In this document: positions 6,493 to 26,945 of the stretch, piece by piece | How the letters are laid out: every line of letters starts with the position of its first letter | Numbering within the stretch: position 1 is the first letter of the stretch | DNA from: Candidatus Eiseniibacteriota bacterium | GTDB lineage: Bacteria > Eisenbacteria > RBG-16-71-46 > CAZAMP01 | DNA: 64,000 bases | Assembly (NCBI GenBank): GCA_965224245.1 | Contig: CBDCYW010000010.1 | Coordinates: 1 to 64,000 of the forward strand | Reading direction: 5' to 3' | The notes under the pieces: model-generated | What the model was told of the DNA's origin: nothing | Seen by the model: only the letters and a program-made list of their open reading frames with translations | The model's database searches: none | Position numbers and translations under genes: made by a program

Positions 6493-6519
6493 GGTCCCCA
6501 GAGACCGCCGCAACAAGGG

Positions 6520-7432: not shown

Positions 7433-7660
7433 TTGTCAGATGAAAAGCCTCGCTCGTATCTGGCTGAAGTCAAAGGCGAGCTACGTGGAATCTTCGACGA
7501 AGCATTCAGCTTCGTGTGGAGTGAGGTCGAGAAGAGCCTCAAGCAGTCGTACCGAAATGGTTTCGCTGATGGACAGAAGTCGGGAGCGAAGACCGGCACC
7601 AAGTCCGCGCGTAGTGGACGCAACTGGAAAAGAGGTGAGTCGAGTGAAGACTCTGAATAA
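7433..7660 (+). CDS. Small hypothetical protein
   Basis: RBS AAGGAGG (~7418) before a GTG/TTG start; SEVEKSLKQSYRNG; overlaps ssb start. Confidence 0.55.
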   Translation: MSDEKPRSYLAEVKGELRGIFDEAFSFVWSEVEKSLKQSYRNGFADGQKSGAKTGTKSARSGRNWKRGESSEDSE

Positions 7661-8045
7661 GGCCCTCGTGATCGGTCACGTTGGTCAGGACCCTGTCCTA
7701 CGGGAAACCGGCGACGGCAAGACGTTCTTGCCTGTATCCGTCGCAACCCATGTTGTCGTGACGCCGAGCGAAGGTGAGAAGAAGCAGTACACCGAGTGGC
7801 ACAACGTCATGCTCTGGGAGCGCAACGCCGAGCTCGCAGCCGGCATGCTGAAGAAGGGTACGCAGGTGTTCATCGAAGGACGTCTGCAGACGTACAAGAA
7901 GCACGACGCGACCAACGGCATTGATCGCTACAACACAGTGATCGTGGGCCAGAACTTCATCGTGCTCTCCAAGAAGGACGAGACGGTCACACCGGAGGAT
8001 GTCGCCAGCGCTGCAGCCGCGACAGACGACGACCTGCCATTCTAG
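7644..8045 (+). CDS. ssb: Single-stranded DNA-binding protein
   Basis: LNKALVIGHVGQDP, TEWHNV, KKGTQVFIEGRLQT; acidic DDDLPF tail. Confidence 0.95.
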   Translation: MKTLNKALVIGHVGQDPVLRETGDGKTFLPVSVATHVVVTPSEGEKKQYTEWHNVMLWERNAELAAGMLKKGTQVFIEGRLQTYKKHDATNGIDRYNTVIVGQNFIVLSKKDETVTPEDVASAAAATDDDLPF

Positions 8046-9458: not shown

Positions 9459-11098
9459 CAGAAAACCTCGCGAAGTCCTTCTTCGAAGAAACCACCGGGC
9501 CAGGCCTTCACCAGCTCGCCCCGCTCGTTCAGCGGCATCTGGCGAACGATGCTCTGCTTATCTCTGGGTTCCACGAATAGCACCATGACATCCTCAGGCG
9601 TAACAGGGCGTACACCGTCGGGCAAGCTGCCGTCGGCGGTCTCGCGCATCCGCCGCATGAGACGTAGAAGAAGATGCTCACTGTGCGTTTCAAGTAGAAA
9701 CGTATTCCCACGGCTACCTAGGGCCGATTCAATGAACACGTCCCCAAGTTCCGCTTGTAGCGCTGGGTGAAGGTGGATCTCAGGTTGTTCGATCGCGATA
9801 ATCTGCTCACTCATGCTGAAGGCATTAACAAGAACGGGAAGTGCCTGGCTCACTCCGATGCCCACGTCGCGATGGGTGACTATCGTCTGCGTGCGACGAT
9901 CCATCAGCACAAGCTCCGTGAACCGATCTACATCTGCTTCGCCAAGAATCGTCTTGAAGTTGTCGACCTCGGCGTCCACGTCCTTGATGTACGGGCGGAC
10001 GTTCATGTCCTCTGGGTTTTCTTGGTCCGGCTCGACATCTAGTCCGTCGTGTTCTGCGATCGCCTCGATCGCCTCGTGCAGCGGGCGGTCCAATTGGTCG
10101 AACGCAACGAGATCACGCACGATTACTTCATAGGGAGTACTGAGTCGCTCCGCGGACATGAGCCACGTGTTTACGGCCGACCTGACATCGGGCTCACGAC
10201 GTAGAACGTCCCAGGCATGGCCGCCGCCCGCATGCCAGTTGGGATCGTGATGCGCAGAAAACGCGAGATGCCGCGGTGGATAGGATCGTAATGGTCCAAG
10301 ATACCGGAAGCGACTAATGACTCCGTCAACGGCCGCGGACACACCGCTGATCAGCTCGCGCAACGTTCGCGGAAGAAACATGCGCACGGCCTCCGCGAGG
10401 TCCTTACCCCTATGACCTCTGCTGACGGGAAATAGCAGTGCTTGCGTTGTCTCCTGTTCCGAGGATGTCTGAGTGTCAAGCTGGGGCAAGAAGTTCCGTA
10501 GGTGAACCGACAGATCAGGTATGAGTCCATCAACAGCGTCGTCCATTCCAACGAAATCTTCTTCTCGTACTTCTTCGGTAGTAGTCGTGGACAGCACGAT
10601 CGCTTTGAGTACTTCACGGAAGACAGGATGCGTCTGATCGAGCCGGTCGATCCGAAGGCGGTTCTTTCCCCTAGCGCTCATGCTGAGCAGGGGCGCGCTA
10701 TCGGCGAGGAGCGAGCACGCGACTGCGCCGATACCGAGTCGCGAGTCTTCTCCTATGAAGTACTGCAGCGCCACGCTATTGGCTGGTGCAAGCAGATCGG
10801 AAACCCGCCCCGATAGGTCTGCAGTATCGAGTTCGATCGTCCATTCGACTCGCTGGCTTGCATCCCGGCGATGAACGTACTGACGAAAGCCTCCAAGATC
10901 AATAGACTCGCCACCAATCTCGGTGCGTTGCGTGTCGAGATCGCCGGTAGCAACGGCGTGGTGAGCGAGAGATAGGCTATGAATGATGCTGGACTTTCCT
11001 GCGCTATTTGGCCCGTAGACAAGGGTAAGCGGTCGAACGGGAATCTCTTGTGTCTCCGCGAAGGCCTTGAAGTTACCAATCTGCAGTGAACGAATCAT
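9458..11098 (-). CDS. ABC-type (AAA_15/AAA_21-like) ATPase with DUF3696-like C terminus
   Basis: GPNSAGKSS, VGIGVSQ signature, IEQPEIHLHP, ETHSEH; terminal WPGGFFEE. Confidence 0.85.
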   Translation of the reverse strand: MIRSLQIGNFKAFAETQEIPVRPLTLVYGPNSAGKSSIIHSLSLAHHAVATGDLDTQRTEIGGESIDLGGFRQYVHRRDASQRVEWTIELDTADLSGRVSDLLAPANSVALQYFIGEDSRLGIGAVACSLLADSAPLLSMSARGKNRLRIDRLDQTHPVFREVLKAIVLSTTTTEEVREEDFVGMDDAVDGLIPDLSVHLRNFLPQLDTQTSSEQETTQALLFPVSRGHRGKDLAEAVRMFLPRTLRELISGVSAAVDGVISRFRYLGPLRSYPPRHLAFSAHHDPNWHAGGGHAWDVLRREPDVRSAVNTWLMSAERLSTPYEVIVRDLVAFDQLDRPLHEAIEAIAEHDGLDVEPDQENPEDMNVRPYIKDVDAEVDNFKTILGEADVDRFTELVLMDRRTQTIVTHRDVGIGVSQALPVLVNAFSMSEQIIAIEQPEIHLHPALQAELGDVFIESALGSRGNTFLLETHSEHLLLRLMRRMRETADGSLPDGVRPVTPEDVMVLFVEPRDKQSIVRQMPLNERGELVKAWPGGFFEEGLREVF

Positions 11099-12393
11099 GA
11101 ATGCACCTCCCGGTCGGTGGCGTCGGAAAGCGCGCGTGCCTGCTCATTCATATCCTTTAGCACTTCCTTCATGTGCGCTTCACGCCAGGCGGCGGTCAGT
11201 TCGCCTGCGAACGCTCGGTGCAAGAGAACTGAAAAGAGTTCGGATAGGCGATCGGACGCTCCCTCCTTCTCGCTACGAATACTTTTGAAGTCGCTTAGCA
11301 CGTCGCAGAAACGCTGTTGGAGTTCACGTGGCGGCAGGGGCACAGGGATCTGGCGGAGCCCATCCGTGTTGATGTTGGATTGGCCGGCGGTGGTGCGAAT
11401 GTAGGGTGCCATCGACCTGCGTCCCATGGGCGTGTTGAGCAGGGCGGAGAGAAAACCGGGCTGTACCTCATTCGTGTCGACGCGCACGCGGATTAGGTAA
11501 GATGCAAACGAGTATTCGCGAGGCTCGCCAAAGACGGCACATCTTCCGACGTAATCTGGGTTCCCGTTCGTCCTAACGAAGAGCAGATCACCATGGATCA
11601 GTGAAAAGCGCTCCCGCTCCTTGCCTGACAGCTCGCAGTATTTGAGATCACTGGGGTCAATCTCCCCGCGAATAATGTTTGGGATCCTCAGCACAGGTGT
11701 TCCGACCATGTCTTCATGGCACCTCTTGGATGTGCCATAGCGCAGATTGATTGCCAATGTCCCCAATCGTGATGTCTCCCAGCCCATCGGATTCGTGGCA
11801 GGATCGCCAAACATTCTTGTGTACAAGGCAGTCGGAACACGGGCTGCCGTTGCACTAGCCGCAGCGCGTAGATTGCGCAGCTCGTCGGCCCGGTCAAGGA
11901 TCTCGACAATGCGGCGCTGTTCGGTGGGAGTGGGCAGAGGAATACGCTGTTTGAGATAGGCTCTGTATTCGAGATTCCTAATGCCGGTGGTTTGCTTCTG
12001 GTACTGAAGGGTCCTGCCTGTCACATGAAACCAATGGAGAAACCAGAATAGGAACCGAGGCTCACAGACCTTGGCATCAACTCGGAGCCGTTGACAAAAA
12101 TTGCTGAACGTGTGAGACCGATCATCCCCCGGGAAATAGCGAACTCGCCCAACGGGCTGACGAGGGCTGCCGCCCGAGCGTTCCAGTATGATGTCCCCTG
12201 GTTCCAGCAGTTTGGCATCGCGCTTGGATTCAGGAATAGACCGAAGTGCCAACTTTGAAAGATCCAACGTCACATCGTTGCGGAAGTTCGTTGAACGGAG
12301 AACATTGGTGCCTTTCTCCGTATCTTCTGGTCCCCAGACGCCAGGATCAGCCAACAGAAGCAGTGTGCTTAGTTGTGGGGAGGCCCAAGTCAT
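11095..12393 (-). CDS. hsdS: Type I restriction-modification specificity subunit
   Basis: Two TRDs with IPLPTPTEQRRIVEIL and VPLPPRELQQRF; MFGDPATNPMGW; LLHRAFAGEL. Confidence 0.95.
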   Translation of the reverse strand: MTWASPQLSTLLLLADPGVWGPEDTEKGTNVLRSTNFRNDVTLDLSKLALRSIPESKRDAKLLEPGDIILERSGGSPRQPVGRVRYFPGDDRSHTFSNFCQRLRVDAKVCEPRFLFWFLHWFHVTGRTLQYQKQTTGIRNLEYRAYLKQRIPLPTPTEQRRIVEILDRADELRNLRAAASATAARVPTALYTRMFGDPATNPMGWETSRLGTLAINLRYGTSKRCHEDMVGTPVLRIPNIIRGEIDPSDLKYCELSGKERERFSLIHGDLLFVRTNGNPDYVGRCAVFGEPREYSFASYLIRVRVDTNEVQPGFLSALLNTPMGRRSMAPYIRTTAGQSNINTDGLRQIPVPLPPRELQQRFCDVLSDFKSIRSEKEGASDRLSELFSVLLHRAFAGELTAAWREAHMKEVLKDMNEQARALSDATDREVHS

Positions 12394-14048
12394 CCCGTCG
12401 CCTCCACATCCTTCAGGAGCTTCGATAGCCGTTTCTGGATCGTGCTCTCCATTGCGAGCAGATCTCGGATTAAGTCGGTTGGATCGTCATCGGGCACATC
12501 TTGACCCACGCGAGGCCTGTAGGTGCCAGCGGAGAGATTGTAATCGTTGTTCGCTATGGTCTTGAGGTTGGCCCACCAGCCGGAGGGAGTATCGCTCCCT
12601 GGCTCAAGGACCGTGTTGGCCTCGACGCCCGGTGCCGCTTTGAAGCCAGAGCTCCTGTATGCGGACCACTGCTGCAGAAGGCGGGGGATGTCGTTGTGAT
12701 CCGGTGTCTCGGGCCGACCGCCGGCCTGAATCTTGTCTGGGTCGTAGCCGTCGTTTGTGACCCCATAGAACCACACTCTTGGCACCGACGGCCTCTTGCC
12801 CTCGTGCGGTCTCCGAAAAACAAGCACAGCAGTCTTGACGCCAGCGTAGGGTTTGAAAACACCGACAGGTAGAGATACAACCGCCAACAGCTCAAAGTCG
12901 TCGATGAGCTTGCGACGAAGCTCAACATGGCCTTTAGTTGAGCCGAACAACAATCCCTCTGGTACGACTACCGCGCACCGTCCGCCTGGAGCGAGAGCAC
13001 GCATCATCACGCCAAGGAATAGCAGCTCACTCTTCTTGGACCTAGTAGGGAGGTCCTGGCGGATAGACTCCTTTGGAAGCTGTCCTGCGAACGGAGGATT
13101 GGAAAGAATCACCTTATAGCGTCGATTGAGGTCATCTTCGGTTAGTCCTCCGATCTCAGAAAGAGTGTTTGCGCGCTTCAGGTTGGCATGGCGGATCCCG
13201 TGCAACACCAAGTTCATCATCGCAATGCGCATGAGCTGGCGCGACACGTCTGTGCCGTGGATCGAAGCTTCGAGAACACTCCAGTCTGGGATTCGCTCCC
13301 CGGCACCCTTGCTATAGGTCTGCAGGTTTGGAATGGCGAGTCTTGCCTCGTCAAGCGTCTCACCGCGCTTCTCAAGCCAGTCCTCGCCGTAGATTGGCAC
13401 GTGTTCAGGGCTCTCGCTGTACTTTGCCAGCATGTAGTCCACAGCATCGATCAGGAAGCCCCCAGTGCCACACGCAGGATCGTAGATGGTATCGCCGAGG
13501 TCCGGATCGACCATCTCCACCATGAACGCACGGATCTGACGTGGCGTTCTGAACTGACCATTCAACGCCGATTGACCTAGGTGCGTTAGCAAGTACTCGA
13601 AGACATCGCCCTTGACGTCCGGTCCGAGCTTCTTGAACTCGATGGTGTCGAGTTCGTCGATGACCTGCTTGAGAACCGCTGGATCGACAATCTCGAGAAC
13701 AGCTTCCCGAAAGTACTCAGCGACACGAGGCGCATCCTTGACGAGAGATGCCATGTACGCGAAGACCTCATCCCGCAAGAAGTCCCGCAGATCGTACCCA
13801 CTCTTATATTTCCATTTGGACCAACGATAGCGCGACGACTGCTTCGGAAACAGCAAACTCCCATTGCCGGCTGACGAGGTCTCGCCGACAAGCCGCCCAC
13901 GCAATTCTCGGTCTGACTCCTCTTCATCAAGCAGCTTCAAGAAGATGAGATATGAGATTTGCTCAATGTAGGTCACCGGATTAGTCACGCCGCCGGCCCA
14001 GAGAATATCCGTGATCCGCTTGAGTTTGCGCCGAATGTCGTGGTCCAT
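12390..14048 (-). CDS. hsdM: Type I RM m6A methyltransferase subunit
   Basis: GQFRTPR, DPACGTGGFL, NPPF catalytic motif; ATG at 14048. Confidence 0.95.
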   Translation of the reverse strand: MDHDIRRKLKRITDILWAGGVTNPVTYIEQISYLIFLKLLDEEESDRELRGRLVGETSSAGNGSLLFPKQSSRYRWSKWKYKSGYDLRDFLRDEVFAYMASLVKDAPRVAEYFREAVLEIVDPAVLKQVIDELDTIEFKKLGPDVKGDVFEYLLTHLGQSALNGQFRTPRQIRAFMVEMVDPDLGDTIYDPACGTGGFLIDAVDYMLAKYSESPEHVPIYGEDWLEKRGETLDEARLAIPNLQTYSKGAGERIPDWSVLEASIHGTDVSRQLMRIAMMNLVLHGIRHANLKRANTLSEIGGLTEDDLNRRYKVILSNPPFAGQLPKESIRQDLPTRSKKSELLFLGVMMRALAPGGRCAVVVPEGLLFGSTKGHVELRRKLIDDFELLAVVSLPVGVFKPYAGVKTAVLVFRRPHEGKRPSVPRVWFYGVTNDGYDPDKIQAGGRPETPDHNDIPRLLQQWSAYRSSGFKAAPGVEANTVLEPGSDTPSGWWANLKTIANNDYNLSAGTYRPRVGQDVPDDDPTDLIRDLLAMESTIQKRLSKLLKDVEATG

Positions 14049-14055
14049 GAGCGTC

Positions 14056-16320
14056 CTATCCTCGATATGTGGCGAAAACATTCTCGTTAAGGTCGTCGAC
14101 GATGCGCTTCAATCCGTCTTCCCCAAAAAGCTCGACGCCCAGGCCCGCTGCGTTAAGTATCGACAGAGGCGGTTTAAACAGATCGTCTACTGCAAGCTGC
14201 CCCCGTGCGATTCCTCGATTTTTCAGCAAGGCGAGATACTGGGCCTGCTCGGGTGTGAGCGAGCGCGTGACGAGCCAAGCGCGAAAGTTTTCGTCAAGCT
14301 GCTCCTCTCGGCTCTTCACCTTGATCAACCCGAGTGCCGCGCGGACAAAGTCGACCAGCGTGCCCCCTGGGTTGCGATAGGCTCGACGCAGGTTCTCCTC
14401 GTTGAAGTAGTGCTCGGGCTGATTAAGTCGACGTGCGAGATGGTCCTCTTCTTCGGGCGTGAGAGGTTCTTCAGCTTTGACCTTGCGCAGCGTAGGATCA
14501 TCGACCGCCTGACCCTGAATCGTCTTTTCCCAGTTCGTGACGTAGTCCCGCTTGTCTACTCTCTCACCATCAGGACCTACTTCGACGTAGGTGACTGCTT
14601 CGAGCCATTCGTCCTCGAGGCCGAGCTCGACGAGGTCACGAGGTGACGTTGGGGCTTTGGGCTTCGCGGTAGGCGCGTGGCCGCTTCCGGTCCCCGTGAA
14701 AATGTCGGTGTCGCTGTCGTTGAAATACTCGTGGTTCTTGAAGAAGTCGTATATGACGAACTTCTGCTTGTCGATGTGGGGGGCGGTGCGTGTTCCCCGC
14801 CCTCTCATCTGCTGGTACAGAATCGGACTTCGCACTCGACGAGCCATAACCAAGTGGAGTACTTCACGGCAATCGAAGCCGGTGTCCAGCATACCGACGC
14901 TTACGGCAACCTGCGGATACTTCTCCTGCTTGAAACGGCGGATGGCGTCATCAGCGTCCGGCACGTCACTCGTAATGACTTCGGCGTAGCGGCCCTTCTG
15001 CTCGGGGTGTAGTTCGTTGAGGTAACTCGCCAGCCGGGACGCGTGATGCTTGGTAATAGCAAAAACAATGGTCTTGCCAGGGGCTACGTCCTGCTTAGGC
15101 GCGAGTTCTAGGTAGTGTTCGTGCGCCAGACGATCGAACTCCTCCATCATCAGACGGTTCGTCTTCTCGTTCGTCCACTTGCGTTCGAACTCCGCAGGGT
15201 CGTAGTGCTCCTCCTCTACGTCAGCGCCCTCAGCGATGATCTCGGTGATGCCCGTGGCGAAACGATAGGGCGCGAGGTATCCCTCCTGGAACGCGTCATG
15301 GATCGGGTAGCTGAAGTCGGGCTGCCCATCCTTGCAGTGGTAGAACTCGAACGTGTTTCGTTCAATGTAGGCCGCAGGTGTAGCGGTGAGGCCGATGTGC
15401 AGGGCATCGAAGTGCGTCAACGCAACTTGCCACGCACCATAGATCGATCGATGAGACTCGTCTGCTATGACGACGTCGAAGTAGCCGCTTGTGTAGTCCT
15501 GGTAACGTCCGATCATTGTCTGGAGGAGGCAGACCGTGATCTGCTGCTCCTGTTTCTGCACACCAGGACGAAGCCAGTAGCTGGGATGGCTGGCGAGAAC
15601 GTCCTGGAGCGCGCCGACTGCCTGTTTGGCGAGCTGATCCCGATCAACGAGAAACAAAATCCGCTCGGCCCGGCCTGCTTCGATCAACCGCTTCAGATAG
15701 AGACAGATGAGATCCGTCTTTCCGGTCCCCGTGGGCAGCTCGATCAGGAAACGACGTTTGCCTAGCTCAACTGCCTGATCGAGGGCACGCATCGCGTCCT
15801 GCTGGTAGCTGCGGACTGTCCGGGTCTCACCCTGTCGAACGTAGTGCTCGGGGATCGCGATCTCCGCGAGCGCCCGTCGAGTGGCTCGCATCTCAACGAG
15901 ACGCTCGAGGTCTCGGCGCGAGAAGAACGAGTTGACGATGCGAGCATCGTCATTCTGGTAGTCCCAGAAGTAGATGAGTTCGCCGTTGGTGAGGAAGATG
16001 AACGGCGCATCAATCTGCTTTGCGTAGGGAAGTGCCTGCTGCTTGGCGATGTAGGGATGCGTGGCCTGACGCTTGGCTTCGATCACTGCGAGTGGGCGGC
16101 CGTCCTGCGAGTAGAGGACGTAATCGGCCCGTCCGCTAGTGTCCCGTGTAACGCCTTCATAGGCACCTTCGACTTCGGCAACCCGCTCTGCGCCAGCGTG
16201 TCGACGATGCACGACCACTTCGGTGCCAACCTGAGATTTGTCTGCAGGGTCCCAGCCGGCGGCACGCAGCGCGTCATCGATTACGATGCGCGCATCAGCT
16301 TCTGTTCTACCTTGTGTCAT
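14056..16320 (-). CDS. hsdR: Type I RM restriction subunit (EcoAI/EcoEI-like)
   Basis: RADY..VIEAKR nuclease motif, PTGTGKT, DESHR, LTATP, QMRGRGTR. Confidence 0.95.
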   Translation of the reverse strand: MTQGRTEADARIVIDDALRAAGWDPADKSQVGTEVVVHRRHAGAERVAEVEGAYEGVTRDTSGRADYVLYSQDGRPLAVIEAKRQATHPYIAKQQALPYAKQIDAPFIFLTNGELIYFWDYQNDDARIVNSFFSRRDLERLVEMRATRRALAEIAIPEHYVRQGETRTVRSYQQDAMRALDQAVELGKRRFLIELPTGTGKTDLICLYLKRLIEAGRAERILFLVDRDQLAKQAVGALQDVLASHPSYWLRPGVQKQEQQITVCLLQTMIGRYQDYTSGYFDVVIADESHRSIYGAWQVALTHFDALHIGLTATPAAYIERNTFEFYHCKDGQPDFSYPIHDAFQEGYLAPYRFATGITEIIAEGADVEEEHYDPAEFERKWTNEKTNRLMMEEFDRLAHEHYLELAPKQDVAPGKTIVFAITKHHASRLASYLNELHPEQKGRYAEVITSDVPDADDAIRRFKQEKYPQVAVSVGMLDTGFDCREVLHLVMARRVRSPILYQQMRGRGTRTAPHIDKQKFVIYDFFKNHEYFNDSDTDIFTGTGSGHAPTAKPKAPTSPRDLVELGLEDEWLEAVTYVEVGPDGERVDKRDYVTNWEKTIQGQAVDDPTLRKVKAEEPLTPEEEDHLARRLNQPEHYFNEENLRRAYRNPGGTLVDFVRAALGLIKVKSREEQLDENFRAWLVTRSLTPEQAQYLALLKNRGIARGQLAVDDLFKPPLSILNAAGLGVELFGEDGLKRIVDDLNENVFATYRG

Positions 16321-16344: not shown

Positions 16345-17865
16345 TTACGCAGTTTTGGTGCCAGCTCGAATCCCATATTTCTTCATCCAATTTGTGAACG
16401 TCTGATAGCTTGCAAGGCCAACGAGTTCGGCGGCGCGAGTCTTGTTGCCTCCGGCCTCGTCGAGTGCCCTAGTCATGTAGTGACGAGCTACATCACTCAA
16501 GAGGTCAGGCAAGCTAAGCTCTTCTCCCAAAGGGCGATTGAGCACGTCGGTATCGCTCGACGTCGGGGGCGGCATCATCGCTTCACGGATGTCCTCGACC
16601 GTGAGCGTTTCGTCTTCAGACCAAATCGCAGCGCGTCGCAGCGTGTTCTGAAGCTCGCGAACATTCCCTGGCCAGGAGTAGTTGAGAAGAAGATTCTTTG
16701 CGCCCGCAGAAAGCTTCTTCTGTCTGTAGCCGGGTTCGCTGCTGCTCTCCTCATTCACCTGCTTCAGTATGTGGTCGACCAGCAGGCTGAGGTCGCCGGC
16801 GCGTTCGCGCACTGGCGGGACCTTGAGGACAGCGACGGCCAGCCTATAATATAGGTCCTCCCGAAAGCGCCCGGCGGAGACCTCATCGGTTAAAGTCCGG
16901 TTGGTAGCCGCGACGATGCGCACGTCCACTTTGATCGGTTGTGTTGACCCAAGGCGGACGATCTCGCCCTCCTGCAGCGCCCGCAGCAGTTTGACCTGCG
17001 CCGGCAAGGGCAGTTCTCCGATCTCATCCAGGAACAGAGACCCTTTATCCGCAGACTCGAAATAGCCTTTCCGTGCCTGGGTCGCGCCGGTAAATGCTCC
17101 ACGTTCGTGGCCAAAGAGTTGGGATTCGATGAGGTCCGCAGGGATGGCCCCGCAGTTCAGCGCCACGAACGGCTGCGCCGCACGGGTACTGGCCCGGTGG
17201 ATCGCTCTCGCAAAGAGTTCCTTCCCTGTACCGGATTCTCCCTCTATTAGAACGGGAACGTTGCGAGCTGCGACTCGCCGGCCACGGTCGATCACTCGGG
17301 ACATCGCACGGCTCCGGTGGACGATGTCATCGAACTCCGGTGCATCGGGGGGCTCGGCCCCGCTCAAGCGCCGGAGCTTCTCGTCCTGTTCTCTGAGTAG
17401 GTCGGGGATAAAGTCTGCTGAGATGTCGAATGGAACAGACGCCGTTCGAACGCCGTGCTCCCGTGAGGACTCGATCAGTTCCGCGGGGTATCGCGTCTTG
17501 GCCAGGATTACCCAGACGGCGGCCATGGCCGGGGTACCGGGGCTCAGGTGGAACACAAGCTCGGTGCTGTCCCGCTGGCCGTCGAGGGCAGCTTCACAGG
17601 ACCGGACGGCGGCCTCGTAGATCTCCCCGAAATTGGTAGGGCCGGACAGCTTCTCCTCGATGATCGTGACCTTCACCGTCGTGCGGGTCTCAAGCCACTC
17701 CAGATACGGCTTGACCCGAGTTGAAGGGTAGTCGGAGACGAGGTAGACCTCGTCGAAGCTCCGACCTTCGAGGGCCTGGGCTATGGGACCAATGCCAACC
17801 GTGTCCGTTTCCGTCGGCGCACGGAGGTCGGTGGCCCCGATCCAGCTCACGAGTACGGTCCTCAT
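16345..17865 (-). CDS. Sigma54-dependent activator (bEBP) with RtcR-like/CARF-like N-terminal domain and Fis-type HTH
   Basis: [14 protein letters not shown] and [10 protein letters not shown] domain; GESGTGKE, intact [22 protein letters not shown]-terminal [12 protein letters not shown]. Confidence 0.9.
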
Positions 17866-17977
17866 TCTCAAAGGGAATACAACGAATCGTGTGTAAAACA
17901 CAAGAACTTTTGTGGCACTACTCCCTTCGGGTCGCGCTAACACACTGCAATATAGTGAGATGCAAGATGCCACCATT

Positions 17978-17992
17978 TGGCACGATTGCTGC
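17978..17992 (+). promoter_or_regulatory. Sigma54 (-24/-12) promoter
   Basis: TGGCACGATTGCTGC: GG-N10-GC with a full TGGCACG -24 box, divergent from the bEBP gene. Confidence 0.75.
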
Positions 17993-18008
17993 GATATGAG
18001 TGGACATC

Positions 18009-19715
18009 ATGGCAACGAACCCTCAGAATCAGCTCAGGAGCCTCGTGGAAGTCTCGGAGGAAGCTGTCTCCGCCGAGATCTTGGATCCGAGACCAAACTC
18101 GATCTCGATGTTCGAGGACCTGACAGAGCCCCAACGCCAGCAGCTGGCGACCGACGCCTGGTCGATTGGGCTTCGAGCTCTGGCGAACGCACATGCCCAA
18201 GCGCAGGAAGCTCGTCTCCAGGACGTCGGAAAGACGCTCCTTGACGACGTCGACCGGCTGCTCAAGGGCCACGTCGATTCGCAGCAGCAGATCATCGCAA
18301 CGGTTCTGTCGAAGTACTTCGATCCCAACGACGGCCAGGTTGCTGAACGCTTGGGCGCGTTCATGAACGACGAAGGTGTGCTGGCCCGGTTGCTCGAGAA
18401 GTATCTCGGGGATGACGGGAGCGTTCTGGCTCAGACACTTGCTCGTCAGGTAGGGGAGCAAAGCGAGCTGTTCAAGAAGCTGAGTCCTACCGATAGCGAG
18501 GGGCTCGTGAAGATACTCGAAGCACAGTTTCGCAGCGTGCTGAATGACGGCCATGCCGAACTGCTTCGAGCACTCGACCCGCTGGCCGAGAATGGTGCGG
18601 TTGCCCGTTTTCTCAAGAGCCTTCGCGAGGACCTCGCGACTGCGGACGAGGACCGAGCCAAGCAACTGCAGAAGGCGTTGGCCGCCCTCGACGCCAACGA
18701 CGACAACTCCCTCATTAGTCGGATGATGAGGGAAACAGCGACGGCCAGGCAGTCAGTACTTGAAGCGGTGAACCCAGAGTCACCCGATTCGCCAATGGCA
18801 ATGATGAAGGCCTCACTCACGGAGCTACTGAAGGACTACGCCAAGACACAGCAGGAGGCGCTCGAACTCCAGCGGCAGCGCCAGGAGAAATTCGAAAGCG
18901 ATGTGCGCGAGGCTCTCGGTCGACTGGAAGGTCGGCGCGATGAGACAGCGGTCAGCCCACGGGGTGGATTAAATTTTCAAGACGCGGTCACCGCCTTCGT
19001 GTCGAACGCGGTTCAGGGCGCGCCATGCACGGTTGAAGACACTGGGAACACCACGGGCACACGGGCTCGATGCAAGGTCGGTGACTTGGTCGCACGATTT
19101 ACGGAAGAGAGCGCATTTGCCGGTCAGGGCGTCGTTTTCGAATCAAAACGAGATGCTTCATACACGACGCAGAAGGCACTCGAAGAGCTCGACGTCGCTC
19201 GCGCAAACCGAAACGCATCAGCCGGGGTGTTCGTCATGGCGAAATCACATGCGCCTGCCGGATTCCCTCTGTTCGCGAGGCACGGTCGTAACGTCATCGT
19301 CACGTGGGACGATCAGGATGCGACCACAGATCCATACCTGCATGCGGGCGTTCTCCTCGGTATCGCGCTCGTTACCAGGGCAAAGTCCGTCGGTGACGAG
19401 GGCGACCTGGAAGCGCTTCGAGACATCGAAGGCCGCATCGAATCCGAGCTGAGTCGCCTCGATAAGATGCGCAAGAGCAATGATTCGATCCGCAAGAACT
19501 CCGACACGATCGGCGAGGAGATCAGGAAGGCCGAGAATGCGCTCGACCTCCTCCTCCGGAAGGCAAAGAGCACGCTTACGGCCCTCAATGTGGAACTCAC
19601 GGAGGAAGCGGAAGAACGCGTGACGCCGATCTCATTCGACGAAGACGCGCTCGGTAATGTGCGTAACGCGACCGACGACTCGCCCCCAGCGACTGGGACG
19701 GATTTGACCGCGTGA
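18009..19715 (+). CDS. Coiled-coil protein with RmuC/DUF2130-like PD-(D/E)xK domain
   Basis: Long helical N-terminal part; G.NFQDAV...GDLV...VVFESKRD motif; C-terminal coiled coil. Start at 18000, 18009 or 18108. Confidence 0.7.
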   Translation: MATNPQNQLRSLVEVSEEAVSAEILDPRPNSISMFEDLTEPQRQQLATDAWSIGLRALANAHAQAQEARLQDVGKTLLDDVDRLLKGHVDSQQQIIATVLSKYFDPNDGQVAERLGAFMNDEGVLARLLEKYLGDDGSVLAQTLARQVGEQSELFKKLSPTDSEGLVKILEAQFRSVLNDGHAELLRALDPLAENGAVARFLKSLREDLATADEDRAKQLQKALAALDANDDNSLISRMMRETATARQSVLEAVNPESPDSPMAMMKASLTELLKDYAKTQQEALELQRQRQEKFESDVREALGRLEGRRDETAVSPRGGLNFQDAVTAFVSNAVQGAPCTVEDTGNTTGTRARCKVGDLVARFTEESAFAGQGVVFESKRDASYTTQKALEELDVARANRNASAGVFVMAKSHAPAGFPLFARHGRNVIVTWDDQDATTDPYLHAGVLLGIALVTRAKSVGDEGDLEALRDIEGRIESELSRLDKMRKSNDSIRKNSDTIGEEIRKAENALDLLLRKAKSTLTALNVELTEEAEERVTPISFDEDALGNVRNATDDSPPATGTDLTA

Positions 19716-19782: not shown

Positions 19783-19977
19783 ATGACGGACATAGCCTTT
19801 GTTGCATACAGTGTTACAGAACATCGGGGTTGCACCAAGCTAGCGGAATCCCGCTGGGTGCGCGTGGGCGTCGCCTTCGAGGACGACGACTCCAGCCTTA
19901 CGCTCTATCTGGATGCGACGCCACTGTCAGGGAAACTTGTCTTGCGGCGGCCAGAGAAGGAAAAGGCACACATTTGA
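19783..19977 (+). CDS. Small conserved-looking beta-rich protein
   Basis: RBS GGAGG; WVRVGVAFEDDDSSLTLYLDATPLSGKLVLR resembles small mobile-element proteins. Confidence 0.6.
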   Translation: MTDIAFVAYSVTEHRGCTKLAESRWVRVGVAFEDDDSSLTLYLDATPLSGKLVLRRPEKEKAHI

Positions 19978-20063
19978 TCCTTCGTCTGTGAGAAGTGCGC
20001 TCCGCTAGGGAGTGGGCGGAGGTGGGCCAGGCTTTTTGGACCGAGATGAGACCAGGAGCGAGT

Positions 20064-21914
20064 ATGTGGCATGACAACGAAACAACCGTTGACCTACTAG
20101 GGTACGGTCGCTTTTCGAACGTTGTAGCGGACCTCGCTTTGGATGAACGCGTTCTTCCGGTGACCATTGGACTATTCGGGGATTGGGGAAGCGGAAAGTC
20201 AAGCGTGTTGGGCATGGCGGAGGAGAAACTCACAACGCAAGAGAAGGTCTTGACGCTCCGCTTCGACGGCTGGCTTTTCGAGGGTTACGACGATGCAAAA
20301 GCCGCCCTGATGACCACGATCATCGATAAGCTCCAATCTCATATCAGCGATAACAAGACGATAAGCGAGAAGGTCGGTCCACGGATAAAGTCACTACTCA
20401 AACGGATCGATTGGTTCCGGACAGCCGGACTCGCAGCGAAGGGCATCCTCACGCTCACATCTCCTGTCGGTGCTGCGCATCTTGCCACCGAGGGCGTCGT
20501 CAAGGGTATCACCACACTCGCGCAGACCGTTAAGGATCCCGACCAGCTGCAGCAGTCCCTCAAGGACATGCTGCTGAAGGAAGCCCCGGGCACTCGGGAG
20601 TTACACGAGAACATCAGCGCGTTTCGAGGCGACTTCCGCAAACTTCTTGAGGAAGCAGAACTCCGGGCACTGGTCGTCCTAATCGATGACTTGGACCGCT
20701 GTCTGCCGGAGTCAGTCGTGTCTACACTAGAGGCGATCAAGCTCTTTCTATCGGTTCCTGGCACGTCCTTTGTCGTTGCCGCCGACGAGAGAGTTGTGCG
20801 ACAAGCGGTGGGGCTACGGTACCCGCACCACGAGGGTGCGGAGTTTGATTTGCCACAGGAGTATCTCGATAAGCTAATTCAGATCCCGCTAGTCCTTCCA
20901 CGCCTGGATGATAGTGAAACGGAAACCTACACATATCTGTTGTTTGCGGAACGGGCGTTGTCGGCAGAGGACTTTGAGAAGGTACTGCGACTCGTTGGTG
21001 ATAAACGTGCGAAGGAGGCAGGGCGACCACCACTCAACTTCGGGATCATCAAAGAGCTGCTGGGCGAAGCGGCGAAGGAACTGGAAACCGACTTCTCGAT
21101 TGCTGCAGCCATCGCGCCCGTTCTCGTGCACAACGGGCATGGGAATCCCCGACTTGTGAAGCGCTTTTTGAATGCGTTGGCCCTGCGGAAACAGATCGGC
21201 GCGTCACAAGGGATGGAGTTGAAGGACGCGTTGCTTGCGAAGCTCTTAGTACTGGAGCGTTTTTATGATGACCAGTTCCAAGAACTTCATGCTTGGCAGG
21301 CTGAGCAGGGTGGGATGCCAGAGCAAGTCCAAAAGCTCGAGACGGCTGCTGTAGACGAGGATACGAACGCAGCCGAAGAGTTCCCGATTTGGCTCACGGA
21401 CGCCGCACTCAAACAGTGGCTGATGACAGAGCCCAAGCTGTCCGGAGAGAACCTGTCGTCCTATTTCACGCTGGCTCGGGAGAGCGTGAGCCTCACATCG
21501 GTTGGGGCGAGGCGTCTTTCATCTGAACAGCAGAGGCTGTTTAGCCTTCTGCAGTCGCGATCGAGAGCACAGAGACGTCAGGGGGTAGAGGCTGCGAAGT
21601 CCATGGATGTGGAGGAACTGGGCTCTGTCTACGATGCACTGTGGGCGAAGGTGAAGACAAACCCAGGCGGCGACGCGATTGACGGTATTTTGGACTTGGC
21701 GCTCACCAGCGAGCCTATGGCAAGGCGCGTACTGAAGAGCTTGAAGTCGCTTCCGGCTGCTTCAATCCCAGTTCGCATAATCCCGCGTTTTGCTCAGCTA
21801 GGCCAAACGCACATGTCTCTTAGCAATGATGTGAATGCACAGTTGCGAGATTGGTCTGGGTGTGCGACTCGGCGCGTGTCGACTGCGGCGACAAGAGTTC
21901 TGAATTCGGGTTAG
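20064..21914 (+). CDS. qatA: KAP-family P-loop NTPase, QatA-like
   Basis: MWHDNETTVDLLG, GDWGSGKSS, LIDDLDRCLP, YLDKLIQIP, GNPRLVKRFLN; gene context. Confidence 0.85.
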   Translation: MWHDNETTVDLLGYGRFSNVVADLALDERVLPVTIGLFGDWGSGKSSVLGMAEEKLTTQEKVLTLRFDGWLFEGYDDAKAALMTTIIDKLQSHISDNKTISEKVGPRIKSLLKRIDWFRTAGLAAKGILTLTSPVGAAHLATEGVVKGITTLAQTVKDPDQLQQSLKDMLLKEAPGTRELHENISAFRGDFRKLLEEAELRALVVLIDDLDRCLPESVVSTLEAIKLFLSVPGTSFVVAADERVVRQAVGLRYPHHEGAEFDLPQEYLDKLIQIPLVLPRLDDSETETYTYLLFAERALSAEDFEKVLRLVGDKRAKEAGRPPLNFGIIKELLGEAAKELETDFSIAAAIAPVLVHNGHGNPRLVKRFLNALALRKQIGASQGMELKDALLAKLLVLERFYDDQFQELHAWQAEQGGMPEQVQKLETAAVDEDTNAAEEFPIWLTDAALKQWLMTEPKLSGENLSSYFTLARESVSLTSVGARRLSSEQQRLFSLLQSRSRAQRRQGVEAAKSMDVEELGSVYDALWAKVKTNPGGDAIDGILDLALTSEPMARRVLKSLKSLPAASIPVRIIPRFAQLGQTHMSLSNDVNAQLRDWSGCATRRVSTAATRVLNSG

Positions 21915-21918
21915 AGCA

Positions 21919-22683
21919 ATGGGTACCTCTGCGTCACGATCAGGTAGCAACTCTTCAACGGGCGGTGCTTGGACCACAGCCAAGACACGTGCAAGCAGGT
22001 TTGCGGGTGGAACGGGATCCTCGGCCGCCGGTGTTGTCTCGGGTTATGCAGCTGCGCTTGCTGAATCCGGAGGTGCTTCTGGAGGAGCCGGTGGCACTGG
22101 GGGTGGTGTTGGCTCCAGCCGCGTGGCGACGGCCACACGCGTCGGGCAGGGGCTCGGCGCGTTCATGGGTGACGTCGGCTCCCGGGGGTTGGACGCTGCT
22201 CTACGTGAGCGCGGCCTTGAGCAGCTCATTGGCAAGAGCGCGGAAGAGGTACTGGCAGGAATAGCTGATCACATAGCCGGCAACGGAGGGCCGCTTGATG
22301 AAGCAATTGCGCGAGCCACGGTCGTCGAGGTTCTAACCGACATATTCGACGAGGAGCAAGACGAATACGACCAACTGCAGAAGCTTCTCGAAGACCGGCT
22401 GGACGGGGACGGATTCAAGGAGATTCTACGCCTGTTCTTGTCGAAATCGATCTTTGAGATGCTGCTAGCTGACATGGCTGATCGGTTCGAAGAGAACGGT
22501 GACAGCACGTCCGAAATACTGCGAAAGGAAAGACAGATCGAGCAGTTCATCGAAGCAATGGTGGAGTTCGATCTGGGTCAGGCGGATCCCCTGCGATTCG
22601 ATTGGGCCGGTGCCGAGGGGAAGGCGCTTGTTGAAAGGAACCTCGCAGCTGCGATCGAACAGTTGGAGGTTCTTGACGAGTGA
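21919..22683 (+). CDS. qatB: QatB-like protein
   Basis: N-terminal MGTS, Gly-rich linker, position between KAP NTPase and QueC-like gene. Confidence 0.8.
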   Translation: MGTSASRSGSNSSTGGAWTTAKTRASRFAGGTGSSAAGVVSGYAAALAESGGASGGAGGTGGGVGSSRVATATRVGQGLGAFMGDVGSRGLDAALRERGLEQLIGKSAEEVLAGIADHIAGNGGPLDEAIARATVVEVLTDIFDEEQDEYDQLQKLLEDRLDGDGFKEILRLFLSKSIFEMLLADMADRFEENGDSTSEILRKERQIEQFIEAMVEFDLGQADPLRFDWAGAEGKALVERNLAAAIEQLEVLDE

Positions 22684-23990
22684 GCAGTCTCTTCCTTAGA
22701 TCCAAAGTGCGCCAGCGGGTTCCGTCGTCGTTCTCCGACGGTCTCGTGTTTGGTCCAGTGCATGAGAAGGGAACGTGCGGCTTCTCTCACACACTGGATA
22801 AGCTCCTATGTAAGCCACGCGATCCATCAGATGGGGCTCAGGCATTTGCCTGTCTGGCTGCGGCTGCGTTCCTGGCAGACAAGAGCTTCTCTCGGTCCGA
22901 GGCTACGGATCGTTGGACGAGAGACATCAGAGTCAGCTTGCCAACGTCGACTCAGGACGCTTCTCTACTCGCTCCATTCGAGGAACTTCTGACGTTTCTC
23001 TCGGGTGACAGGTGGCAGCTTGAGGGACGGGATGAAAAGGCACGCATCGGCGCGCGGAGATTCTACAAGGACAAGTTCGTCCCGGATCGCATCAGCCTCT
23101 TCTCTGGCGGCACCGATAGTCTTGTAGGCGCGATCAATGCCCTTGAGGAGGAGCACAAGGTCCTGTTGGTGAGCCACTTTGAATCAGGGATAGACGCAGG
23201 TGTTCAGAATGGCCTGGTTCGGCAGCTCCAAAGACAGTATGGAGTCGAGCGGGTCCGGCATCGCTCCATTCAGCTTTGCGTTCCCAATGCCGTGGAGAAA
23301 TCATCGCGCAGCAGATCGCTTCTGTTTTTGGCATTGGGAATCAGCGCGGCATCGGTGTATGGAGATGATACGCCACTGCTGATCCCCGAAAATGGGTTCG
23401 TCGGCCTCAACCTGCCTCTCACCGGCGCGCGTCTCGGGAGCTATAGCACCCGAACAACGCACCCTGAGTTCGTGCGCGGCCTTCGGAGGGCGCTTGAGGG
23501 GCTGTCAGTCAAGAACCCCATCGTGAATCCGCTTCAGAGTCTGTCAAAGGGTCAATCGCTTTCTACATGCGCCAACAGGGAGCTCCTTGAGCGGCTTCTC
23601 CCGGAGACAGTCTCGTGTGCGAAGGGAAACCCGGGGCGATATCAGGGGCGAGACGAGAAGAACTGCGGCTACTGTTATCCATGCCTTATGCGACGAGCGG
23701 CGTTTCACTCATTGGGAGTGGACGTCGCGAAGCACTATCTCGAAGACGCAATTGGAGAGCCAAGAACCCTGGGAGAGGATGCGAGAGGAAGGGATACTCG
23801 AGCCCTGCTTCAAGCGGCCCGCTACTACGCTGGCAGCCGCCGGCGATTGCTGGCGGGCCTCTTGAAAACCGGGCCGATATCGGGAGCGGCATCTGTCGAA
23901 GAGTGCCTGGGCGTGGCTGCTGTCGGCTACGAGGAAGTCGCTGCGCTCGTCCGGGACAAGGGCTGCCGTACCGTGAAGCGATTTGCGTAG
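22680..23990 (+). CDS. qatC: QueC-like protein QatC
   Basis: SLFSGGTDS PP-loop, RSRSLLF, PENG, STRTTHP, CGYCYPCLMRR. Confidence 0.88.
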   Translation: MSSLFLRSKVRQRVPSSFSDGLVFGPVHEKGTCGFSHTLDKLLCKPRDPSDGAQAFACLAAAAFLADKSFSRSEATDRWTRDIRVSLPTSTQDASLLAPFEELLTFLSGDRWQLEGRDEKARIGARRFYKDKFVPDRISLFSGGTDSLVGAINALEEEHKVLLVSHFESGIDAGVQNGLVRQLQRQYGVERVRHRSIQLCVPNAVEKSSRSRSLLFLALGISAASVYGDDTPLLIPENGFVGLNLPLTGARLGSYSTRTTHPEFVRGLRRALEGLSVKNPIVNPLQSLSKGQSLSTCANRELLERLLPETVSCAKGNPGRYQGRDEKNCGYCYPCLMRRAAFHSLGVDVAKHYLEDAIGEPRTLGEDARGRDTRALLQAARYYAGSRRRLLAGLLKTGPISGAASVEECLGVAAVGYEEVAALVRDKGCRTVKRFA

Positions 23991-23993
23991 GAT

Positions 23994-24341
23994 GTGGTGA
24001 TCGTGAAGGCTTTGTCTATCAAGCAACCGTGGGCGAACATGATCGCCGCCGGCGAGAAGACGATAGAAACGAGAACCTGGCTCACTGACTATCGGGGCGA
24101 TCTTCTCATAGTCTCCTCCAAGTCCCCACCCATCCATCCAGCCGGGTTCGCATTGGCAATCGCTGAGCTCGTCGACTGTAGACCCATGACCCGCGGTGAC
24201 GAACGGGCCGCCTGCTGCGACCTCTATCCGAAAGCTCAAGCATGGGTGTTGTCCAACATCCGACGCATCCGTCCGTTCCCTGTGAAAGGTAAGCTGGGTA
24301 TCTACGATGTAGAGTGTTCCCCTGAAGTCGAGGGGGAATGA
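23994..24341 (+). CDS. ASCH domain protein
   Basis: ALSIKQPWA..I..GEKTIETRTW...YRGDLLI...PVKGKLG. Confidence 0.9.
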   Translation: MVIVKALSIKQPWANMIAAGEKTIETRTWLTDYRGDLLIVSSKSPPIHPAGFALAIAELVDCRPMTRGDERAACCDLYPKAQAWVLSNIRRIRPFPVKGKLGIYDVECSPEVEGE

Positions 24342-25527: not shown

Positions 25528-26586
25528 TCAGAGCCTTTGGGACACTTCGCGGCTCATCGCTATGGACACTTCCCTCACGTCGGCTGGCCGGATGACGTCC
25601 TTTCTCGTGACCGGCAAGCCTAGATTGTAGCGCCTTCTGCGCCGCAGGGTCTCTCGCTTCACGAGCGCCCTCGCCGAACGGATCTCACGCCCACGGCCCT
25701 CATACACGTCCGCCGGCGTGAGGTTGTCGAGCGCCTCGTGCACGCGCTCGTGGTTGTAGTGCTCGACGAACCGACCGATCTCCTCGGACAACTCCGCGGG
25801 CTGGTAGTAGTTGCGGAGCTTCACCACGTTCTTCATCGTGCGGTGGTACCGCTCGATCTTGCCCTGGGTCATCGGGTGATACGGTCGACCCCGCGTGTGC
25901 GGGATCTCCCGCTCCTGGAGGTACCCCCGGAGCTGTCCCGAGACGTAGCAGGCACCGTTGTCGGTGAGGAGCCGAGGCCGCTGTCGCACGTGAGGCCGGG
26001 TGACTCCGGTGCGGGCGATGGCCTGTTCGAGTACCCGCTCCACGTCATCGGTCGCCATCTTCTGACAGAGCAACCAGGCGATGATGAAGCGGCTGTAGTC
26101 GTCGAGCACCGTGGCCAGGTAGTACCAGCCCCAGGCCGTCACCCGGAGGTAGGTGAAGTCCGTCTGCCAGAGCTCGTGCACGCGTCGGGTGGGGTTCGGG
26201 AACTGCTCGAGCGCCGTCAGCACCATGAACGACGGGCTCGTCACCAGGTCCTGGGCCTTCAGGATGCGATACACGCTCGATTCCGAGATGTACGTCCCAT
26301 CCACGTCCGTGAGCCGCCAGGCGAGCTCCCGGGGCGAGAGATCGGGGTGATCGAGCGCCACCTCGACCACGTGCTGCCGCTCTTCGTCGGGGATGCGGTT
26401 CCAGAACCGACGAGCGGCCGGCTTGACGCCCTCCAGCGCCTCGAACCCACCCTCCTGATACAGCCGGTACCAGCGGTAGAACGTGCTCGGGGCCACCTCC
26501 AGCTCGCGCAGCGTCTGCCGGACACCGAGCTCGGAGCCCTCGACCAGTCGGATGATCTCGAGCTTCTCGGACGCCGTGTGCCTCAT
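25528..26586 (-). CDS. Transposase OrfB (rve DDE)
   Basis: WQTDFTY, LDDYSR, TDNG, GKIERYHRT. Confidence 0.92.
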   Translation of the reverse strand: MRHTASEKLEIIRLVEGSELGVRQTLRELEVAPSTFYRWYRLYQEGGFEALEGVKPAARRFWNRIPDEERQHVVEVALDHPDLSPRELAWRLTDVDGTYISESSVYRILKAQDLVTSPSFMVLTALEQFPNPTRRVHELWQTDFTYLRVTAWGWYYLATVLDDYSRFIIAWLLCQKMATDDVERVLEQAIARTGVTRPHVRQRPRLLTDNGACYVSGQLRGYLQEREIPHTRGRPYHPMTQGKIERYHRTMKNVVKLRNYYQPAELSEEIGRFVEHYNHERVHEALDNLTPADVYEGRGREIRSARALVKRETLRRRRRYNLGLPVTRKDVIRPADVREVSIAMSREVSQRL

Positions 26587-26945
26587 TGACCGTCCGACTC
26601 GTCGGCCAGATCGGCACTTTTTTTCAGAACCGCATTGCGCACCGACAGATCGGCAACCAGATCCCGGAGCTGCCGGTTCTCCTGGCGAAGCGCGATCACC
26701 TCCGAACTCGTCGCCTCCCGCTTCGTGTTCCCCTGCAGACGCCGCTTCCCGGCCTCCAGGAACTCCTTGCTCCAGTTGTAGTAGAGGTTCGGGCTGATCC
26801 CTTCACGACGGCACAGCTCCGCGATCGTCTCCTCACCCCGGAGACCTTCCAGAACGATCCGGATCTTCTCTTCCGATGAGAACTTACGGCGGGTCTTGCG
26901 GCGGATCTCACGAACCGCCGACTCCGGGCCAGTCTTCTTCGACAT
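26583..26945 (-). CDS. Transposase OrfA (HTH)
   Basis: RRKFSSEEKIRIVLEGLRGE..IAELCRREGI. Confidence 0.9.
   Translation of the reverse strand: MSKKTGPESAVREIRRKTRRKFSSEEKIRIVLEGLRGEETIAELCRREGISPNLYYNWSKEFLEAGKRRLQGNTKREATSSEVIALRQENRQLRDLVADLSVRNAVLKKSADLADESDGQ

Follow-up and report, generated by a model that had tools for sequence, protein, structure and literature searches.

A candidate sigma-54-dependent defence cassette joining a predicted nuclease to a Type I restriction-modification system in a Candidatus Eiseniibacteriota genome

The activator, the effector and the restriction genes

The window analysed here, the whole of a 64,000-nt stretch of DNA from a Candidatus Eiseniibacteriota bacterium (assembly GCA_965224245.1, contig CBDCYW010000010.1, positions 1 to 64,000), contains what appears from its sequence to be a mobile cassette of five genes. 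The gene for a sigma-54 enhancer-binding protein (the activator; 16345–17865, minus strand) and that for a predicted nuclease (the effector; 18009–19715, plus strand) are divergent and 143 bp apart, and the activator gene is followed on its own strand, after 24 nt, by hsdR and then by hsdM and hsdS of a Type I restriction-modification (R-M) system. A preliminary description of the window had proposed a sigma-54-inducible defence module at this position, an interpretation that is partly supported by the present analysis, being largely right but incomplete, as the second of two promoters had been missed. All of the sequence features that it named are found at the positions given.

The activator is a 506-aa protein in which Pfam, PADLOC and an alignment of CARF sequences identify a CARF domain, a GAFTGA-bearing AAA+ domain and an HTH_8 domain. 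Its open reading frame (ORF) spans 16345–17976 on the minus strand, and the true start is most likely the ATG at 17865 (ORF residue M38), since residue 40 is the first covered by the PADLOC match and homologues open with MR.VL..W.G. Pfam matches were obtained to Sigma54_activat (PF00158; 1.6e-71), AAA_lid_14 and HTH_8 (7.3e-06), and the motif ERGAFTGA is intact in the translation, in agreement with the earlier description of a GAFTGA protein heading the Type I R-M operon. With this AAA+ domain, a C-terminal Fis-type helix-turn-helix (HTH) and a predicted enhancer upstream, the protein has the features of a bacterial enhancer-binding protein (bEBP). The PADLOC model RtcR_PspF2--CARF_AAA_HTH (PDLC01995) is matched from end to end (1.5e-204, 678.6 bits; ORF residues 40–536 against model positions 2–480 of 481) and the CARF motifs W.G.TD and LSPGTP.M are kept in 21 sequences, which bears out the suggestion of a CARF/RtcR-like bEBP. 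By sequence the activator belongs to the described RtcR_PspF2 family, a name that we take to come from the CARF classification of Makarova et al. (2020). It is a relative of RtcR rather than RtcR itself, as its score against the NCBIfam RtcR equivalog NF038308 (348.6 bits) lies below the cut-off of 650. A search of the PDB by sequence gave no match for the CARF domain, and no sigma-70-like promoter was found for the activator in a simple scan.

The frame of the effector is open from a GTG at 18000 (571 aa), whilst the record's own protein starts at the ATG at 18009 (568 aa); residue numbers given here follow the 571-aa numbering. No family match for the effector was obtained from Pfam, PADLOC or NCBIfam. 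A total of 609 homologues were found, and among the matches listed these are 59–88% identical, around 560 aa long and ‘hypothetical’ where named; a second search gave 1204 representatives of 50%-identity clusters (E 0.001 or better). The whole effector met only ‘hypothetical’ clusters in the Protein Atlas, where residues 30–320 gave no usable named match, and its profile had no match in the PDB by sequence. In an alignment of 24 sequences the mean column identity is 73%, with strong conservation of the helical N-terminal region. The predicted structure consists of long helices (43–316), a mixed alpha-beta part (326–461) and a further long helix (467–528), although the full-length model has a mean predicted local distance difference test (pLDDT) of 65.4, its helical part is badly placed and it yields weak Foldseek matches. 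The sequence shows no evident membrane helix. An internal repeat was also seen in the helical region, consisting of five spaced motifs of the form h-(D/S/N)-P-x-x-(D/E)-x-x-h at residues 106–273 (18315–18818), namely FDPNDGQV, LSPTDSEG, LDPLAENG, LDANDDNS and VNPESPDS, which in distant relatives takes the form SLDxxxSALxRL.

Residues 318–468 (18951–19403, plus strand) form a domain that was modelled with a pLDDT of 94.2 when folded alone from 91 sequences. Eight chains with Z of at least 8 were returned by VIA, these being McrC, PaqCI, Bax1 (two entries), three Can2 and Can1, all of them PD-(D/E)xK nucleases (Z 8.1–8.7, 118–131 residues aligned), and the ten best rows are all PD-(D/E)xK proteins or their kin (Z 8.0–8.7, 101–131 residues aligned). 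The best Foldseek match is again McrC (E 2.8e-3, probability 1.00). Seven residues are invariant in the 91 sequences (G323, G361, D362, E381, K383, R404 and W436), and E327, an upstream acidic residue conserved in at least 90% of them, would complete the set E327, D362, E381 and K383. The motif G361-D362 ... V379-F380-E381-S382-K383, on which a nuclease fold had been proposed earlier, is thus present, and the model of the domain agrees with that proposal. Amongst the 91 family members, 26 match Mrr_cat and 7 match DUF2130 (Pfam, E 0.01 or better), with three of 15 distant relatives reaching 21.1–22.1 bits against Mrr_cat (PF04471, cut-off 21 bits); none of the 91 matches RmuC in Pfam. PADLOC searched up to E 1 gave no ShdA match for the effector, the only hit being a 13-bit match to LmuB. 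The uniformity of the structural list, the invariant residues and the Mrr_cat and DUF2130 matches of relatives together identify the effector, at the level of sequence and model, as a protein with an Mrr-like PD-(D/E)xK fold and a predicted nuclease, which would probably be active as such.

The R-M genes of the window look intact. HsdR (754 aa; 14056–16320, minus strand) matches ResIII, EcoEI_R_C and HSDR_N in Pfam and has a nuclease motif of its own (D66...E81-A-K83), HsdM (563 aa; 12390–14081, minus strand) matches N6_Mtase (1.2e-46) and HsdM_N as well as MTase_I of PADLOC (5.2e-135), and HsdS (432 aa; 11095–12393, minus strand) matches Methylase_S and Specificity_I of PADLOC (1.1e-85).

Sigma-54 promoters and enhancer sites

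Relatives of the locus were gathered as 78 metagenome loci, 2 genome-contig loci, which were all that a scan of genome contigs with a single effector protein gave, and a number of genome stretches. Copies and identical contigs (L003, L004, L016, L019, L039, L084–L102) and the rpoN locus (L083) were set aside before counting, as were loci with an effector match less than 45% identical (L063, L081, L082, L108, L112–L115), and 84 loci, the window included, were counted.

The promoter of the effector, P1, is a sigma-54 -24/-12 element (TGGCACGATTGCTGC; 17978–17992, plus strand) that ends 16 nt before the ATG at 18009. It was already recognised in the preliminary description, and it is conserved. 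When scored at 11 consensus positions, with the motif placed 8–23 nt before the start codon, 62 of the 74 testable loci reach at least 8, 50 reach at least 9 and 15 reach at least 10, vs 3.0, 0.7 and 0.2%, respectively, of random ATGs in the same DNA. Of the 62, 29 have a gap of 13 nt between P1 and the ATG and 21 a gap of 14 nt, together 50.

A second promoter of this kind, P2 (TGGCACCAAAACTGC; 16349–16363, minus strand), overlaps the final codons of the activator gene and is separated from the hsdR ATG by 28 nt. It scores at least 8 in 48 of 50 loci and at least 9 in 44, compared with 6.6% of random 54-nt windows at 8 or more, a general comparison rather than the background of the P2 window itself. 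In 36 of these 48 loci the first base of the motif directly follows the activator stop codon, and the hsdR ATG is found exactly 13 nt past it in 29 of the 43 with a callable start. As the R-M operon thus has its own conserved sigma-54 promoter, restriction would be gated too, and not only the effector. In the window both promoters keep GG-N10-GC, as in TGGCAC-N5-TTGC, each with one mismatch to the 10 fixed positions of the searched pattern, and the genome has a single copy of rpoN (220 bits). Dependence of P1 and P2 on RpoN in vivo is predicted. A simple scan for sigma-70-like promoters of the minus-strand genes found none, a result that settles little.

Across the loci, TGA replaces TGC at -12 in around 40–50% of sites, TTGA being the commonest form of P2. 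Such a change might make the promoters leaky, which could for instance maintain methylation. The idea that P1 and P2 of one locus carry matched -24 variants was considered, but the table of pairs does not bear it out (TGGAAC/TGGAAC in 3 loci, TGGCAC/TGGAAC in 3 and CGGCAC/TGGAAC in 2). A further sigma-54-like motif with one mismatch (TGGCACGTCCTTTGT; 20759–20773) is found inside qatA, lacks the GC and is probably there by chance.

Transcription from sigma-54 promoters usually starts about 12 nt after the -12 element. With a spacing of 13–14 nt between promoter and ATG, this implies that in most cassettes the predicted P1 and P2 transcripts would begin 2–3 nt before the ATG and be leaderless. 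The leaders predicted for the window are somewhat longer, at around 5 nt for P1 and around 17 nt, with a GGAG, for P2.

The promoter at the activator stop codon extends beyond loci with an effector. Activators 59–64% identical to that of the window head other operons in four loci (L147–L150), which hold genes for DUF4258 (BrnT-like), VWA, PP2C, kinase and UPF1-like helicase proteins, and in all four a sigma-54 motif lies 26–34 nt past the activator stop codon. On these sequences, a sigma-54 promoter at the activator stop is therefore a trait of the family, and the nuclease is just one cargo among several. A promoter resembling P1 also precedes a different, small divergent gene in two of these loci (L147 and L148).

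Between the divergent genes lie two candidate enhancer (upstream activating sequence) sites. Site 1, an imperfect inverted repeat (TACAACGAATCGTGTG; 17878–17893), is 12 nt from the activator start codon, and site 2, an inverted repeat (CACAAGAACTTTTGTG; 17899–17914), starts 79 nt ahead of the TGG in P1; their centres are 21 bp apart, and neither has a second copy elsewhere in the 6.94-Mb genome. An alignment of the loci on P1 shows paired inverted repeats of the form (T/C)ACAAG-N4-CTT(G/A)(T/C), around 21 bp apart, that adjoin the activator start codon, and in most loci the proximal repeat starts 76–82 nt ahead of the P1 TGG. This pattern is found in 39 of 56 loci vs 0.4% of random 62-nt stretches, a second pattern fits 5 and neither fits 12, most of which have the variant TAACGA.TCTTCTG...CAGAAGAG...TTAT that goes with activators around 50% identical. 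The tandem repeats are predicted to be binding sites of the activator, around 80–100 bp upstream of P1. The preliminary description had placed a possible enhancer at a palindrome, TGTGT-AAA-ACACA (17890–17902); an enhancer about 80 bp upstream of P1 is supported and the palindrome exists, but it is in the wrong register, being the right half of site 1 joined to the left half of site 2, and two tandem inverted repeats take its place. A half-site (AACAAGAC) around 85 nt before P2 was considered as a second enhancer; it coincides with codons for the conserved HTH motif G-N-K-T, has no partner half and is at most a tentative candidate.

Inheritance, setting and function of the cassette

Synteny was assessed in the 65 loci that contain the effector N-terminus and at least 500 nt upstream of it. 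A divergent activator lies within 300 nt of the effector in 57 of these, conserved synteny being a check that the preliminary description had named, and in one further locus (L025) it is 1.56 kb away with two small genes in between. The gene after the activator is hsdR in 45 of the 50 loci that pass its stop codon, hsdM in three and neither in two. Of 14 genome stretches, 7 combine the effector and activator genes with hsdR and hsdM, and in most cases with hsdS as well. Pairwise identities of effectors and activators are correlated (rho 0.91, 45 loci), with none of 999 permutations reaching the observed value, which fits inheritance of the sequences as one cassette, although shared ancestry alone gives some correlation too.

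The distribution of the family is patchy. Among 206 genomes of the phylum to which the window belongs it was found in 2, and in the phylum of another of the loci (L001) in 15 of 401 genomes, with the CARF domain in 27. One genome has two full copies of the cassette (L105, L109) around 370 kb apart on the same contig. No relatives of the effector were found in viral contigs, and a plasmid search gave only four weak haloarchaeal matches of 24–28% identity. The GC content of positions 1–26000 of the window is 56–60%, compared with 68.6% for the genome, and this part holds, beside the cassette, genes for Replic_Relax (6254–7228) and SSB (7440–8045) proteins, a weak match to HerA/DUF87-like proteins (4693–6159) and an insertion sequence (IS) with an rve transposase (25528–26586) and HTH_Tnp_1 (26583–26945). 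The Replic_Relax, SSB and HerA-like genes and the low GC content suggest an integrated mobile element.

Different loci carry different genes downstream of the effector, among them CBASS, Thoeris, Gabija, NACHT and AbiEii, with Qat in the window, so that from gene content the cassette is a unit located in defence islands. The Qat genes are thus no conserved part of it, and the earlier suggestion that the activator might also switch on the qat genes is not supported. QatA, QatB and QatC lie within 19995–24341 (PADLOC, 3.4e-116, 1.8e-25 and 7.3e-88) and are followed by an ORF for a 115-aa ASCH-domain protein; no QatD was recognisable among the window ORFs scanned. Beyond the Qat genes are a 383-aa gene of unknown kind on the minus strand and then the IS. 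The 280-nt gap between effector and QatA contains a 64-aa ORF (19783–19977) with no Pfam family, and a simple scan of this gap found no terminator after the effector. At the other end, the R-M operon closes with genes on the minus strand for an AAA_15/DUF3696 ATPase (9458–11098), which matches PDC-M55A, NsnB and HEC-03B in PADLOC, and a 311-aa protein of unknown kind (8523–9458). These two genes probably belong to the cassette, as a variable part of it. A similar ATPase follows hsdS in another locus (L151, 17658–19307).

The reading that we favour, with a little more confidence than doubt, is that of a horizontally spread, sigma-54-dependent defence cassette in which a sensing activator switches on a nuclease together with a Type I R-M system. 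The CARF-AAA+-HTH protein would bind the two tandem inverted repeats beside its own start codon, and its CARF domain, by analogy with RtcR, for which an RNA end with a 2′,3′-cyclic phosphate is the proposed ligand, may sense a ligand. Once activated, it would remodel the RpoN-holoenzyme at both promoters. P1, pointing away from the activator, would drive a mostly leaderless mRNA for the coiled-coil, Mrr-like PD-(D/E)xK nuclease, and P2, abutting the activator stop codon, would drive hsdR-hsdM-hsdS, so that the Type I restriction enzyme and an extra nuclease would both rise on demand. The nuclease would most likely cut DNA alongside restriction or as a back-up. The wiring of this scheme is well supported by the position and conservation of its parts, and the signal, the enzymatic activity and an anti-phage role are plausible extensions of it.

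R-M is usually treated as constitutive, and a Type I system with its own enhancer-dependent promoter and a predicted ligand sensor would suggest that DNA defences may be raised only on demand. The recurrent design of a sigma-54 promoter with an ATG 13 nt later, implying leaderless sigma-54 transcripts, also invites a bolder extension, which we hold to be rather unlikely, namely that the cassette is a takeover-proof channel for expressing immunity, whose CARF domain reads an RNA-damage or nucleotide signal of infection and whose sigma-54 promoters and leaderless mRNAs supply a restriction enzyme and an abortive-type DNase. Sigma-70 promoters and Shine-Dalgarno-led initiation are steps commonly subverted by phages, and if this were true the immunity genes would be expressed with neither. 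The analysis also defines a large unnamed nuclease family that is absent from the defence-gene catalogues searched, and provides exact coordinates of promoters, enhancer and catalytic residues for experiments. If the signal were found, it would show which cue a CARF domain outside CRISPR systems detects in the course of infection.

Several observations weigh against the sigma-54 cassette as we read it. The activator is absent at 7 of the 65 effector loci (L008, L010, L011, L021, L053, L067, L068) and, conversely, several close activators are without an effector: in L117/L151 it has gone whilst the enhancer and R-M genes are kept, L123 has a remnant only, consisting of P1 and the first codons, and L125 has neither. 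Related loci are kin, and the counts given above therefore overstate the independent support. In the window alone P1 is not beyond chance (5 matches to the sigma-54 pattern with at most one mismatch vs 3.48 expected, and 27 of 100 shuffles with at least 5), and it is conservation in 62 of 74 related loci, against 3.0% at random ATGs, that makes it significant. The GC at -12 reads GA in 24 of 62 P1 and 25 of 48 P2 sites. There is no full enhancer site near P2, which may be activated from around 1.5 kb away, or else the enhancer may serve only P1 and autoregulation. As to the effector, the VIA scores of 8.0–8.7 are modest and may reflect a common arrangement only, nothing reaches E 0.001 in Foldseek with the nuclease domain, and the window's own protein has no Mrr_cat match at E 0.01 or better. 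Its identity of 59–69% across phyla, among the matches listed, is unusually high for a defence effector.

This conservation, together with the 73% mean column identity in 24 sequences, may instead point to a role in a damage response, analogous to the induction of RNA repair by RtcR, in which the activator senses damage, perhaps from self-restriction, and the nuclease protects the host of an inducible Type I enzyme by processing or repairing broken DNA in an RmuC/DUF2130-like recombination role. The targets of the closest characterised relative of the activator are repair enzymes and are likewise divergently placed, as far as the available parts of PMC7790460 and PMC9650030 describe them, HsdR already has a nuclease motif of its own, and DUF2130 matches 7 of the 91 effector relatives. 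However, RmuC matches none of the 91, the cassette is patchy and located in low-GC defence islands, and the effector has been lost from L151 and, but for a remnant, from L123, in which the activator and R-M genes are kept. Because some genomes keep activator and R-M without it, the host is not strictly in need of the effector, and we regard a damage response as doubtful.

It is also improbable, in our view, that the effector physically joins the Type I enzyme as an accessory, its long helices docking on the Hsd complex to add or redirect cleavage within a five-part enzyme rather than in one of two parallel arms. Effector homologues without an activator are still found beside Hsd-type genes in L008, L011 and L068, the EcoEI_R_C domain is present in all 10 checked HsdR adjoining an activator, and the strong conservation of the helical N-terminal region would suit such docking. 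Two loci (L110 and L111), on the other hand, have activator and effector without Hsd genes, and relatives of the activator head other operons without an effector.

That the effector is a feedback regulator, made from the activator's own sigma-54 promoter and silencing the activator by binding to it, as PspA does, is very unlikely. The layout does copy that of pspF-pspA, with divergent genes and an enhancer by the activator start, and the effector has a long helical region, yet it is 2.5 times the length of PspA, and a D-ExK catalytic set that does not vary among 91 sequences speaks for an enzyme. The control of RtcR by its target proteins, which bind its CARF domain according to the portion of PMC9650030 available, would favour such feedback; a complex prediction of effector and activator CARF domain scored 0.00 against a mark of 0.32 and is uninformative on binding. 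Finally, there is next to no likelihood that the TGGCAC motifs are not working promoters, with the genes read from ordinary promoters and the activator acting elsewhere or vestigial, as the chance-level match in the single window, the many sites lacking GC at -12 and the sigma-70-like scan, which found nothing on the minus strand and settles little, are opposed by two motifs per cassette whose positions (in 62 of 74 and 48 of 50 loci) and distances to the ATG are fixed, by an enhancer unique to this locus of the genome, and by similar motifs past the stop codon where relatives of the activator lead other operons.

Relation to known systems

Divergent arrangement of a regulator and its sigma-54-driven target is familiar. 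In pspF-pspABCDE the divergent target encodes a protein with a coiled coil and the enhancer adjoins the gene of the activator, and the cassette resembles it in all three respects; however, PspF has no sensor domain and PspA is no nuclease. In the rtcR-rtcBA layout the regulator is likewise divergent from its sigma-54-driven target, and here the likeness extends to the activator, a CARF-bEBP as in RtcR. The divergent gene of the window, in contrast, encodes a nuclease-fold protein and not RtcB or RtcA, its neighbours are Hsd and Qat genes, and a second promoter serves the R-M operon (for RtcR and its CARF domain, see the parts available of PMC7790460 and PMC9650030).

Coiled-coil nucleases of the Shield ShdA and RmuC-like kind occur in Type I R-M loci, as stated in the sections covered of Bell et al. 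(2024; PMC11090510), and share with the effector a long coiled coil joined to a PD-(D/E)xK nuclease and encoded alongside Type I R-M genes. The effector differs in having no ShdA or RmuC match and no evident membrane helix, and its nearest Pfam families are Mrr_cat and DUF2130, not RmuC. The same sections describe superoperons in which RtcR homologues head Type I R-M and CoCoNuT genes. The window is similar in that an RtcR homologue heads co-directional defence genes including Type I R-M, and relatives of its activator (L147–L150) head operons of the kind described for CoCoNuT loci. It differs in that no McrB, McrC or CnuH-type gene is present in the window ORFs scanned, and those sections of PMC11090510 mention no divergent gene for the superoperons.

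The closest precedent is that of Makarova et al. (2014; PMC4012209), who, in the main text, report that RtcR-like CARF-NtrC-HTH proteins are often associated with R-M systems and predict that the CARF domain senses an infection-derived ligand, upon which downstream genes are activated through sigma-54. The activator is of the same protein family and has the same R-M association, and the prediction fits the cassette, which gives it backing at the level of sequence and a concrete locus at which it can be tested. No divergent partner, promoter or enhancer is named in the passages covered of PMC4012209 (section 7). The view that the system could not be matched to a named one is therefore only half true, as the activator family and its link with R-M are present in that paper, and the superoperons in the covered sections of PMC11090510. 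The nuclease partner and the layout of promoters and enhancer were not found in the literature searched, supplements being outside its scope. What is known, then, is an RtcR-like regulator of R-M loci, and what is new is the nuclease as its partner, the use of two promoters, the enhancer and the predicted leaderless design.

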